Part shown: piece after piece, positions 1-3,026 of the stretch
Numbering within the stretch: position 1 is the first letter of the stretch
Layout: each line of letters opens with the position of its first letter
NCBI GenBank assembly: GCA_963813715.1
Contig: CAWFAK010000005.1
Coordinates: forward strand, 1,120,001 to 1,184,000
From: an uncultured Planctomycetaceae bacterium
GTDB taxonomy: Bacteria; Planctomycetota; Planctomycetia; Planctomycetales; Planctomycetaceae
Reading direction: 5' to 3'
DNA: 64,000 nucleotides
The notes under the pieces: model-generated
Told to the model about the DNA's origin: nothing
The model's database searches: none
The model's input: the letters and a program-made list of their open reading frames with translations, nothing else
Translations under genes and position numbers: made by a program

Positions 1-602
1 ATCCCCGGCGCGCTTTGAACAATCTCGGCCTTCTGTTTCCACTCGTCGTCCGATTGGACCAGCGCGGCGATTCGCTTCTCGAAGCGTCGGATCTGCTTGG
101 TGAGCGCGTCGACGCTCTCCTGAAGGCTCTTTTTAACAAACTTGCTGGCGACGTTTTCTTTGCGGTTCATTTCGGCGGTTCGCAGCTCGACGAGCTGCCG
201 GCGGCGGACGACGAGGTCTTGCAGTTCGAGCTGTTTTTCCGGGATTTTTGTCTGGGTCCGCGGCACGACGGCCTGCCCGAAGCGTGCCAGCACGGCCGCG
301 TCGATCCGATCGGTCTTGGCGAGGATTCCGCAGGCTTTGGCGAAGTCGCGGACTTGTCGGGGGTTGACGACCGCAACCTGATGGCCCGCGTCGATCAGTT
401 CGGCGACGAGGGCCCGCTCGTAACCGCCGGTCGCTTCCACGACGATCAAACACTCTCCGGGAGGAGGAAGCTTCTCTCGGAGTTGCCCTCGGCCCTTGGA
501 ATCGTTTGGCGGCTTGAGCGACGTTCGCTCAGGCAGCACGTGCACGTCGAGGGTCCGTTTGGCGATGTCGATACCGACGAAGGATTTGAAGGCGACGTCC
601 AT
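1..602 (-). CDS. IS110 family recombinase/transposase, N-terminal DEDD domain (runs off the window start)
   Basis: Manual minus-strand translation from ATG at 602: MDVAFKSFVGIDIAKRTLDVHV...CLIVVEATGGYER, with the GIDxxK and EATG motifs of IS110 RuvC-like domains. Absent from the ORF track because it has no stop in the window. Confidence 0.93.
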   Translation of the reverse strand, partial: MDVAFKSFVGIDIAKRTLDVHVLPERTSLKPPNDSKGRGQLREKLPPPGECLIVVEATGGYERALVAELIDAGHQVAVVNPRQVRDFAKACGILAKTDRIDAAVLARFGQAVVPRTQTKIPEKQLELQDLVVRRRQLVELRTAEMNRKENVASKFVKKSLQESVDALTKQIRRFEKRIAALVQSDDEWKQKAEIVQSAPG

Positions 603-605
603 GAC

Positions 606-800
606 GATGTCCCGTCCTTGCGAATGCGAGCTCGAGCGGCGACTGGCGCCACGACGGCTCTGACGGCTGTTCGGGCTGATCTCATGAGACCGGCGGCGAT
701 CCAGCTCTCCCACGGTCTTCTTGGACCTGAGGGCGGACGATCTACCGCCGGCCGCTGTGGGAAACCTTGCTTCGCTACGCTTCGCAAGCCTTCCCACAGC
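606..800 (-). ncRNA. Putative IS110 bridge RNA (5' hairpin, target-binding loop, donor-binding loop)
   Basis: Hairpin GCTGTGGGAA...TTCCCACAGC (754-800). Stem GGCCGGCGG...CCGCCGGTC (688-753) encloses GTCCGCCCT and TGGGAGAG. Stem CCCG...CGGG (611-675) encloses ACAGCCG and GCAAG. Confidence 0.75.
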
Positions 801-844
801 TGTCACCATCAAATGCGCAGATTGATCTTTTTTCAACATACAAG

Positions 845-1037
845 GGCCGGGGTGAGGGCGGATTTCGCGTCCCGTCCCGTCATGCGAATGTGTCCGGACC
901 GGATCGGCCGCCCCTCGTGGTCAACTATCTCGTGGTCAAACTCCCTATTGAAAGTAGTTGACCATGACCCTGACCACGACCCCTTCAGACTCTTTCCCCC
1001 CTCGCCCCGCCGCGGGAGAGGGGCCGGGGGTGAGGGG
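845..1037. repeat. REP-like CCCTCACCCC(C)GGCCC(C)TCTCCC elements: interrupted copy at 845-858, intact copy at 996-1037
   Basis: gggccggggtgaggg at 844-858 and gggagaggggccgggggtgagggg at 1014-1037, the latter with hairpin ccccctcgccc...gggagagggg. Confidence 0.75.
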
Positions 1038-1068
1038 GTCTTCGGGTCCCATCCCCGTTTCTAAATCA

Positions 1069-1164
1069 GTCCCGTCCCATTCTTTCCCCCTCGCCCGGCC
1101 GTCTCGGACAGGAGAGGGGCGATTTCGCCCGGGATTTTCTCGGTGAAACAACGTGTCCCGTCCC
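1069..1164 (+). repeat. Dispersed non-coding repeat, homologous to 34491-34602 and 34702-34747
   Basis: Core ggcgatttcgcccgggattttctcggtgaaacaacgtgtcccgtccc is near-identical at three places in the window. Confidence 0.8.
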
Positions 1165-1649
1165 GTTTGGCAGACCAGTCCGGACCGGGGCCCCTGTTCG
1201 CGAGAGTGTCCGGACCGGGCCCCGACCCCCATCGCCTCTCTTCTCTGATCTTGGACCACGCCTTCGGCGGATCTTCGACCTTGGACTTTAGACCTTGGAC
1301 TCGCTTGAAGGTGTCCCGACCCACCGGGCAGGTTTTGATCCAGGAGATTGGACTCGCTCACGTCGTGGTCACGCTTGCCGCCAACAGCGCGCACGCAACC
1401 GCTCGCGCAAAAAGCCGCTCTCTCCATTCAGCCATAAAATCGCCACTCGGCCAAGATCAGTTTTTCATTTTCTCGGGAAGCCCCGATGAGGAGCGTCACT
1501 CCGCTTGCCACGGTTGGTCAGCCCGTGGACATTGGGTGCCCCGCCGGATCGAAAGCCCCAGCGCGCCGACAGCTCCTTCTTAAAGGGCAATAACATATTT
1601 GATCCAGTGGACCCCGGGCGGCATGATGGCGAGCCGGAGGAACCACGCG

Positions 1650-2753
1650 ATGGGCGAAAAGCTCAAATGCGGACGCTGCGGCAACGAGCTGGATTTGACT
1701 GGGCATCCTGTCGGAGATCCGTTCGCGGCCATTGGATCTTTCCTGATCTGTGGCGGATGCAGTTTCCCGAATCCGGCCGATCATCATGCAGCCGATTTCA
1801 AGTTTGGCATCATCGCGCTGCTGGGCCGACCGTACACGAACATCAAGGTCAAGAACGACCTTTTGATCCCGGTCAAAGAAGCATTTGACCGCAACATGGA
1901 TCGGGTCGTGTCCCTCTCGCAACTGCCAAGAGCGCTAAGCCTGCACTGGCAATTTTTCAAGGAAGGTGGGCCTCCGCGCGTCGGTCATATGTCTGTAGGA
2001 GCACCACGTGAGGCACCGGAAGTGCGTCCAATCTGGACCTACATGAGACACGATCCGCAATTCAAACACGACGACGTTTACGCAAACGTTTCAAAGGGAG
2101 TGTCTATCGGCATCGAAACATTACTCGCGTCGATGATCATCGGTGCTTGGACCGCATTCGAGACTCTTGCCGGTGACATGTGGGAGGCGGCGGTCAATTG
2201 CCATTGGCAGATTTTGTCCGCGTTACAGGGCGCACCTCAGAAGTGGCAAAACTCCAATTCGTCTGATGACCGTGGCGATGAGCAAGAATCTCCAGAAGGA
2301 CGGGGCGGAAAGGCCGCCGAGAAAGGCCTCCCCCTGGGAGTCCTTCAAAATGGCCCAGGACTTTTTGATAAGCTCGGCACACTGCTAAGAAAGCAGAGGC
2401 GATACACCTTTCAAACGCTTCCGGTAATTCGCAAAGCGTACGGGCAAGCGTTTTCGCAAGAGTTTCGAACAGGTGCGCGATGCCCTGATCCATTCGTCGC
2501 TTGATCATTTAGCGGGTGTTCGAAATGCGTTGGTGCATCGCGCCGGAAAGGCGGACGGAAAATTCAAGCGGCAGCTTACCGGATGCAGTCACTTCAAAGA
2601 CATTAAAGAGAACGATCCGCTGAACCTTGATGGAGCGGTTGTGTCGAGTTTGTCGGCAACGTGCTCATCCAAGCGATCGAATTGGTTGTCGCGGTTGACA
2701 AATGGATTTGCGATCATCCACAGGATAAGCAGCGAACTGAAGAGTCCGGTTGA
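1650..2753 (+). CDS. Hypothetical protein: N-terminal CxxC..CxxC Zn ribbon and C-terminal HEPN-like domain (two frameshifts)
   Basis: GGAGG then ATG at 1650. CGRC...CGGC; IGAWTAFETLAGD; after a frameshift near 2465, VRNALVH (Rx4H); second frameshift near 2652; TGA at 2751-2753. Confidence 0.6.
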
Positions 2754-3026
2754 ATTAGAACAGCGCTGTTCGGCTTGCATAGGCGAAGGGGCGAGCACAT
2801 TGAACCGGGCTGCTCTACGGATCAAGATCCGTTTGAGTTAACTACCCTTCCGCAACCTTTCTTGCGCCGACCGGGCGACTCTGGCTGGCCGACGAGGTGG
2901 GCTGAGGGGTGCCTTGCCCGCAGATTCTTCAACCGAGTCTTTATCGGGCACGCCATCGCCCGCAGCAAGAACGCTGCCGGCCCATGTTTTGCCCGCGACT
3001 CGTCGCTCTGGCTAAAATTCCCGCCT

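Follow-up and report, generated by a model that had tools for sequence, protein, structure and literature searches.

The question raised by this locus is whether the long noncoding stretch that precedes a recombinase gene, at one edge of the window (the whole 64,000-nucleotide stretch of DNA that was analysed, G000:C5:1120001-1184000), encodes an RNA that directs a mobile element to the very repeat in which the element sits. The element is of the IS110 group, lies on the minus strand and spans G000:C5:1120844..1119628, where it is cut off by the window start; its length is 1,217 bp in the window copy, and 1,217–1,220 bp is the range for the element as such. A long left end upstream of the gene (242 nt, window 603–844, minus strand) is found together with a short right end (24 noncoding nt past the stop codon), and the window feature is very probably one terminus, the left, of an IS110-group insertion sequence, with an IS621-type bridge RNA encoded in it. 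The parts referred to in the following paragraphs, in window positions, are these:

1..602, minus strand: 5' part of the recombinase gene (residues 1–200; PF01548, E 9e-26), with the rest of the gene and the right end beyond the window start.
603..844, minus strand: putative bridge RNA gene, the 242-nt noncoding left end, 94–100% identical across the nine genomic copies.
614..675, minus strand: predicted donor-binding loop module (element positions 170–231).
615..616, minus strand: candidate donor-loop handshake guide GA, its G complementary to target position 7 (C).
617..625, minus strand: candidate right donor guide, AUUCGCAAG, in discontiguous pairing with the first bases of the element, CTTGTAT, and invariant in the clade.
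663..670, minus strand: candidate left donor guide ACAGCCG+U, equal to the last 7 nt of the right end (segment ACAGCCG, 664–670) plus a G.U pair at the core C.
690..751, minus strand: predicted target-binding loop module, with outer stem CCGGCGG/CCGCCGG plus GAUC/GAUC and inner hairpin GGUC-CAAGAA-GACC.
703..704, minus strand: candidate target-loop handshake guide CU, its C complementary to donor position 7 (G).
705..711, minus strand: candidate right target guide GGGAGAG, the reverse complement of CT plus CTCCC.
728..737, minus strand: candidate left target guide, the 10-nt 5' side of the target loop, UCCGCCCUCA; its register is uncertain and it is the most variable left-end segment in the clade.
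755..799, minus strand: predicted 5' stem-loop (element positions 46–90).
835..840, minus strand: -10-like hexamer TATGTT, which pairs with the right-end TTGAAA (17-nt spacer) solely once the ends are joined.
843..844, minus strand: CT core at the left junction; the second CT, at the right end, is outside the window.
845..861, minus strand: left flank, CCGCCCTCACCCCGGCC, which comprises arm 1 and the spacer of the REP-like unit that the element interrupts.
1005..1047, minus strand: intact sister REP-like unit with the uninterrupted target ...CCGGCCC CT CTCCC..., which reads CCCCTCACCCCCGGCCCCTCTCCC.

The limits of the element and the sites of its copies can be read directly from the DNA. On the minus strand the element starts with CTTGTATG at window 844, abutting CCGCCCTCACCCCGGCC (window 861–845). 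Its right end lies beyond the window, at G000:C5:1119628, and reads ...AAACACAGCCGCT up to the junction and CTCCCAGCGG after it, the terminus of the window copy being ...GAAACACAGCCGCT, then CTCCCAGCGG outside the element. The original prediction, which was made from the window sequence, had placed there an end close to ACAGCCG-CT and a flank resuming with CTCCC(A), and both are present (the flank is CTCCCAG). A BLAST search with the element retrieved nine full-length copies in the genome (94.5–100% identity), all of which start with CTTGTATG, end with ACAGCCGCT, carry the CT core at both junctions and continue into CTCCC on the right. Eight of the nine interrupt one identical position of a REP-like unit, with a left flank CCCTCACCCCG(G/A)CC(C), and the ninth, with left flank GTGTCCCGTCCC and site CC-CT-CTCCC, adjoins a reversed REP-like unit; the expectations of a CTCCC right flank, and of copies that do not sit in unrelated sequences, are borne out by these positions.

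The REP-like unit is composed of arm 1 (CCCTCACCCC), GG, arm 2 (CCCTCTCCC), a loop and arm 3 (GGG(C/A)GAGGG). Free CCCTCTCCC sites amount to 124 in the genome, 74 of them with arm 3 downstream and 42 with arm 1 upstream, and strict hairpin units amount to 46; from these two counts the repeat exists in tens of copies, not in hundreds, and its earlier description as a high-copy REP must be replaced by that of a moderately repeated sequence. An empty version of the site is observed as well: a contig from a soil run joins L001 568 to 1784 and omits 1,215 nt (1,217 minus 2, with two ambiguous bases), retaining one CT, which makes the joint scarless. This joint occurs in three of the four public soil runs compared, with a shorter side of 141 nt in one of them and 22 nt in the other two.

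The protein belongs to the family expected for such an element. The window fragment (first 200 residues, ATG at window 602) matches the DEDD domain of IS110 transposases, PF01548, and an intact 317-aa paralogue contains both PF01548, the RuvC-like DEDD domain, and PF02371, a Tnp domain with a conserved serine; the intact protein matches the solved IS621 and ISCro4 recombinases over residues 7–307 with E 3e-42, a match at the family level. The GID, EAT, TDxxD and SG motifs are aligned in the ISCro4 alignment, and the putative catalytic residues of P0001 (D12, E56, D98, D101 and S237) would, from that alignment, be the equivalents of D11/E60/D102/D105/S241 of IS621. In the species-genome scan, the nearest proteins outside a close clade of soil MAGs labelled Planctomycetaceae share at most 63% identity.

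The 317-aa frame is intact in three of the nine copies, one of them at G000:C5:1086648, and has indels in the other six, which are either decayed or mis-assembled. The window copy is without 3 nt beyond the window edge (element positions 971 and 1077–78), and its frame shifts after about codon 243 into a segment with one in-frame TGA. The contigs of all four soil runs compared have the missing letters at both places. It is quite possible, if somewhat short of an even chance, that this copy is a dead relic with a broken recombinase gene, which at most supplies RNA to the intact copies, a role that would fit the report that the ISPpu10 recombinase acts in trans (bioRxiv 10.64898/2026.03.19.712850). 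Nevertheless, the indels are located in short runs (GCGCGC, AAA), the kind of place in which long-read assemblies err, the left end keeps the same target and donor loops as most of the other copies, and the three intact copies could mobilise this one, which probably depends on their recombinase. Of the claim that the locus holds a new bridge recombinase, the family domains and the match to IS621 are retained, and the gene of the window copy itself is frameshifted.

Having established the ends and the protein, the RNA can be considered. The left end folds at -106.8 kcal/mol, more stably than shuffled sequences (z -3.99; 2 of 200 shuffles equal it), into a 5' hairpin, a stem-bounded target loop with an inner hairpin and a second, similar module, the donor loop. 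Relatives were gathered from three sources: a sample of the phylum, with matches in 12 of 400 other genomes and none above 53% identity; the species-genome scan, with 37 loci; and a metagenome scan with a 20-nt donor-loop word, with 16 loci, 13 of which have the target-loop architecture of the clade. The covariation set was an alignment of 15 representative left ends on a structure drawn by hand. In this set 83.4% of the cells are paired (35–43% with the partners slid) and 31 of the 40 pairs show a compensatory change; the observed covariation values were attained by none of 500 shuffles on four of five measures and by 3 of 500 on the fifth.

The individual helices behave in the same manner. 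Helix 1, in the 5' stem-loop, is compensatory in 14 of 14 pairs and paired in just 70% of the cells, because the distant relatives align poorly there; helix 2, in the target module, is 91.5% paired with 10 of 12 pairs compensatory; and helices 4 and 5, in the donor module, are 85% and 94% paired. RNAalifold independently recovers the outer stem of the target loop, with compensatory changes at 8 of 8 outer pairs, and a divergent genomic copy has exchanged a G-C for an A-U pair in that stem. The covarying two-loop structure that had been anticipated among homologues is therefore found. A scan of window 1–3000 against Rfam gave no family at threshold, the only hit being sX15 (E 0.22, 25.3 bits against a threshold of 55).

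One link between this RNA and its target is the right target guide. GGGAGAG immediately precedes the 2-nt handshake position, is exact in 9 of 9 genomic copies and is exact in 25 of the 26 close-clade elements with a known right flank, the exception being L075 (one G.T). It had been noticed that these letters are the reverse complement of the continuation of the sister repeat, which is literally so. Among the 15 representatives, the reverse complement of CT plus the five right-target bases (RT5) is exact at the cognate loop position in 11, with eight different right flanks, and the remaining four have an IS621-like 4-nt guide, GUAG or UCAG; non-cognate pairings mostly give three to six mismatches. 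As to the length of 7–8 nt previously assigned to this guide and considered long, seven paired bases (5 nt plus 2 of the core) are indeed found, and such a length is not unusual, since the same 11 of 15 relatives have an exact 7-nt guide; Durrant et al. (2024; PMC11208160) had already described orthologues, some in number, in which the RTG exceeds the IS621 one in length.

A sister lineage (about 85% DNA identity) carries GGGUGAG and sits at CT-CACCC, in arm 1 of the same repeat. In L044 and L078 the GGGUGAG loop is present at CT-CACCC, and L037 and L047 are located at CT-CACCC too, with the target loop lost. Read from these guides and flanks, the switch of one base in guide and target is a natural retargeting between the two arms of one repeat. 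L037 and L047, from a third Planctomycetaceae MAG, are sister-lineage copies whose left end is partly or wholly missing (truncation at element positions 237 and 500) and whose right end, at CT-CACCC, is retained. A separate case is L063, on a contig of Cupriavidus sp. (49% protein identity), in which the same guide GGGAGAG occurs at CCC-CT-CTCCC of a Cupriavidus palindromic repeat; to judge by the letters, the two elements seem to have converged on repeat arms that are alike.

The donor loop agrees with the ends of the element itself. In 37 of the 39 elements examined, the donor loop repeats the 7 nt found just ahead of the terminal CT. The automatic right-end finder missed L030 (right end with a 1-nt deletion) and L058 in this count. 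On the other side, the complementarity of CAAG to the element's own CTTG, already pointed out in the original prediction, extends to a right donor guide that fits the 9-on-7 pattern on CTTGTAT, as in the discontiguous guide A157–G165 reported for IS621 (PMC11208160; PMC11208158). In the rule given by Hiraizumi et al. (2024; PMC11208158), the partner of a handshake base is position 7 of the non-cognate DNA, not that of the cognate one. In the target loop this relation is found in 15 of 15 representatives, with L051 covarying as U:A; in the donor loop it is found in 13 of 15 by script, and in 14 of 15 after L015 was read by eye (the script had picked a later CAAG, inside the gene), with L045 covarying as A:T. 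No handshake base pairs with its own donor position 7.

These agreements bear on the most sceptical reading, in which the matches between loops and flanks are due to chance and the left end is merely a structured 5' leader of the transposase mRNA. The left-end RNA is here a prediction from sequence, and C-rich, low-complexity sequence inflates short matches, as is seen for the left guide; however, the right guide, both donor guides and both handshake positions all agree, guides and handshakes covary across relatives with different flanks and ends, and the cross-controls of the right guide are clean. This reading is strongly disfavoured, its probability being very small indeed. The claim that this is an element of the IS621 type, with a bridge RNA directed at the REP-like repeat in which it sits, is upheld by the right flanks (9 of 9), the sites (8 of 9) and the covariation.

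The contribution of the left target guide is more difficult to define. The 5' side of the target loop is concluded to be the left guide, of uncertain register and contribution. In register A, that of the earlier note (G plus UCCGCC, then CU for the core), 2–4 of 7 positions match in the 14 type-1 elements for which the left flank is known, and the best 9-mer match is 6/9 (range 5–6/9), compared with 4–7/9 for non-cognate pairings. More distant relatives reach 7–9/9, clearly above their controls; the CU is located at loop positions 8–9 in most relatives and at 7–8 in type 1. In register B, with eight paired and two linker bases as in the left donor guide of IS621, 3–5 of 7 positions match, and in type 1 there are 5/7 plus a G.U in 10 of 14 elements. 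The match of GCCCT to the left flank plus CT, on which the first proposal relied, is literally present; it consists of only three informative bases and the invariant CT. Natural left-guide mismatches are reported to be mostly 0–2 (Durrant et al., 2024; PMC11208160). The sole perfect 14-mer for register A (GTCCGCC-CT-CTCCC) is at minus-strand offset 926088 of C5, outside REP-like units, and is unoccupied.

The loops themselves are diverse. Seven of the ten columns of the 10-nt left loop vary, and there are seven distinct loops in the clade, in elements that are at least 85% identical and all placed at the same REP position. The type-2 loops, UCCACCCCGA and UUGACCCCGA, do not follow their left flanks: whatever the register, they offer no U to the core T. 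They share 7–8 nt with CACCCCG(A/G), a stretch of the REP that is 4 nt away from the crossover. On this basis it is possible, if on the whole unlikely, that the machinery is unchanged and the target is chosen by the 7-nt right guide and by the shape or context of the REP hairpin, with the left guide contributing little or nothing beyond the core-adjacent bases, a rule that resembles the sequence-plus-structure rule proposed for ISPpu10. The diversity of loops at one position and the background level of left-guide matches speak for it, as does the presence of arm 1 upstream of eight of the nine insertions compared with 42 of the 124 free CCCTCTCCC sites, and ISPpu10 is reported to require a target stem-loop besides pairing (bioRxiv 10.64898/2026.03.19.712850). 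Some loops nonetheless track their left flanks: L071 has A instead of G in the loop and sits at a REP variant with A in the matching left position, and the loop of L077 fits its flank at 7/9, ungapped.

Moreover, occupied sites outscore the 718 free CTCTCCC sites against the left guide, with register B means of 4.62 and 2.22, respectively. A register B score of 5 is reached at six of the eight occupied sites and a score of at least 5 at 50 of the 718 free ones, a comparison that REP membership confounds, so that REP context and left sequence cannot be isolated from one another. The hairpin of ISPpu10 includes the left target and the one described here includes the right target, which weakens the parallel. 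Register B separates occupied from free CTCTCCC sites better than register A. A tentative proposal, held with rather low confidence, is that this Planctomycetaceae-associated clade has a target loop with a donor-loop-like 8+2 layout, in which the left guide would never pair with the core T and would match its natural target at about 5/7, specificity being carried by the 7-nt right guide as it reads the 5' arm of the hairpin. Were the 8+2 reading true, a poorly matched left guide would be tolerated in natural bridge systems to a far greater degree than the IS621 screens suggest, given an extended right guide.

Three other accounts of the weak left match were considered, and none was adopted. 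Pairing of the left loop with arm 1 of the REP, 14 nt upstream, is perfect in the window copy only (UCCGCCCUCA equals the flank TCCGCCCTCA at 10/10) and was rejected as a general rule, since the other copies share 6–8 bases; arm 1 and arm 2 both contain GCCCTC, and a guide that fits arm 2 automatically fits arm 1. A one-base bulge in the target, with CCG(N)CCCT facing CCGCCCU, would give seven contiguous pairs at several sites, misfits the CCGGCCC sites and is no more than an idea. The recombination called 'half-match' (bioRxiv 10.64898/2026.08.31.748434) concerns, as that report presents it, the donor loop versus the target loop, not the left versus the right guide, and the weak left guide is therefore left unexplained by it.

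Judged from sequence, and apart from the degree of left-guide complementarity, which at 6/9 or at 5/7 plus a G.U does not exceed the cross-controls, the features of an IS110-group bridge-RNA element are found here: the recombinase domains, the ends, the core, the layout of the RNA, the right and donor guides, the handshakes and the promoter consensus. As described by Durrant et al. (2024; PMC11208160) and Hiraizumi et al. (2024; PMC11208158), IS621 of E. coli shares with this element a two-domain DEDD/Ser recombinase, a long left and a short right end and the CT core; the start of the element, CTTGTAT, equals the right-donor bases derived for IS621 (PMC11208158). The likeness extends to the 5' stem-loop, target and donor loops with inner hairpins, the handshake positions, a junction promoter (predicted here), a REP target, a 9-on-7 right donor guide (AUUCGCAAG here) and a left donor guide of 8 nt, after which come two linker bases. 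The differences from the published IS621 are that the RNA would be about 215 nt long, if its start follows the -10 box, compared with 177 nt; that the right target guide has seven paired bases, compared with four in wild-type IS621; that the left guide matches its natural target at 5–6/9, compared with a single G.T mismatch; and that the right target is within the 5' arm of the repeat hairpin, whereas the IS621 site is apparently at the 3' end of its repeat. This last point comes from three REP sequences printed in the IS621 papers, which end ...CGGCCTAC or ...CAGGCCTACG, letters close to those of the reported IS621 target ATCAGGCCTAC (PMC11208160; PMC11208158), a likeness which suggests that the site is at the 3' end of that REP. 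The targeting of REPs is classical for IS621 and other IS110 elements in the accounts of the same two papers.

ISPpu10 and ISPpu9 of Pseudomonas putida are also of the IS110 family and have several copies in REPs (bioRxiv 10.64898/2026.03.19.712850; PMC12288879). The target hairpin that has been proposed as a second layer of specificity in ISPpu10 arises from the left target and a 5' extension, whereas the hairpin described here consists of the right target and the downstream arm; the relationship between the two was compared at the family level.

Elements of the IS1111 group, with the seekRNA of Siddiquee et al. 2024, reportedly share the recombinase family and the RNA-guided principle. In these elements the right end is described as the long one and as the location of the guide RNA, downstream of the gene, and subterminal inverted repeats of 7–17 bp are reported for them (PMC11208160). 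In contrast, it is the left end that is long here (242 nt, compared with 24 nt on the right), and the donor bases are bordered by an inverted repeat of just 3 bp, AAC/GTT; these two properties exclude the IS1111 layout.

When the ends are joined in silico, TTGAAA-17 nt-TATGTT is formed across the junction, a sigma-70-like consensus that may not be that of the host phylum. The geometry is identical in nine of 14 representatives; a further one has a spacer of 18 nt, another shows different candidates and the last three show none. A junction promoter has been reported for IS621 (Hiraizumi et al., 2024; PMC11208158). The element or its near-identical kin was found in 20 soil or rhizosphere runs from 16 studies; six of these are RNA libraries, kept, like the rest, as contigs only, a form that cannot show a transcript. 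A higher summed depth over the target loop, considered as a sign of expression, is accounted for by variant contigs.

The anatomy, the copy sites, the agreement of guides with flanks, the covariation and the empty site are observed here; transcription, RNA binding and catalysis are the steps that we infer, and they can be ordered as follows. By analogy with IS621, the element would excise as a circle, and the joining of its ends would create the promoter (right-end TTGAAA, 17-nt spacer, left-end TATGTT) that drives the bridge RNA and the recombinase. The donor loop would hold the joined ends, with AU..GCAAG paired to the left-end CTTGTAT, and the target loop would hold the REP-like repeat, with GGGAGAG paired to the top strand CT-CTCCC, in the 5' arm of the repeat hairpin, and with its 5' side paired only in part to the bottom strand to the left. 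The DEDD/Ser recombinase would exchange strands at CT, assisted by the handshake bases (the target-loop C for donor G7 and the donor-loop G for target C7).

The element is a new natural bridge-RNA element, of which the mechanism itself was already described in 2024, and is otherwise an ordinary member of a family with thousands of catalogued orthologues. Among the papers searched, none joins bridge RNA with Planctomycetes. The interest of the element is that it comes from a little-studied phylum, has well-defined limits and offers clean material: nine copies in one genome, sister lineages in assemblies and in soil contigs, an empty site and a one-base retargeting. Two of its properties may be of use in engineering, namely a 7-nt right guide alongside a badly matched and fast-changing left guide, and loop variants some of which are without a base for the core T.

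Some minor observations concern the arrangement of the copies. Two pairs of insertion sequence copies in the same orientation are found at G000:C5:1206700-1209468 (331 nt apart) and G000:C16:500666-503780 (677 nt apart), and the pair on C5 unites the common target loop with the divergent one. The divergent target-loop variant, with all seven of its changes, also appears in low-depth soil contigs (L001 1607–1699, runs X3 and X11), which means that both types of loop co-occur beyond the source genome. Finally, the decamer GGGACGGGAC, present as such or as its complement at window 869–878, occurs 363 times genome-wide, often flanking REP-like units and insertion sequence copies.
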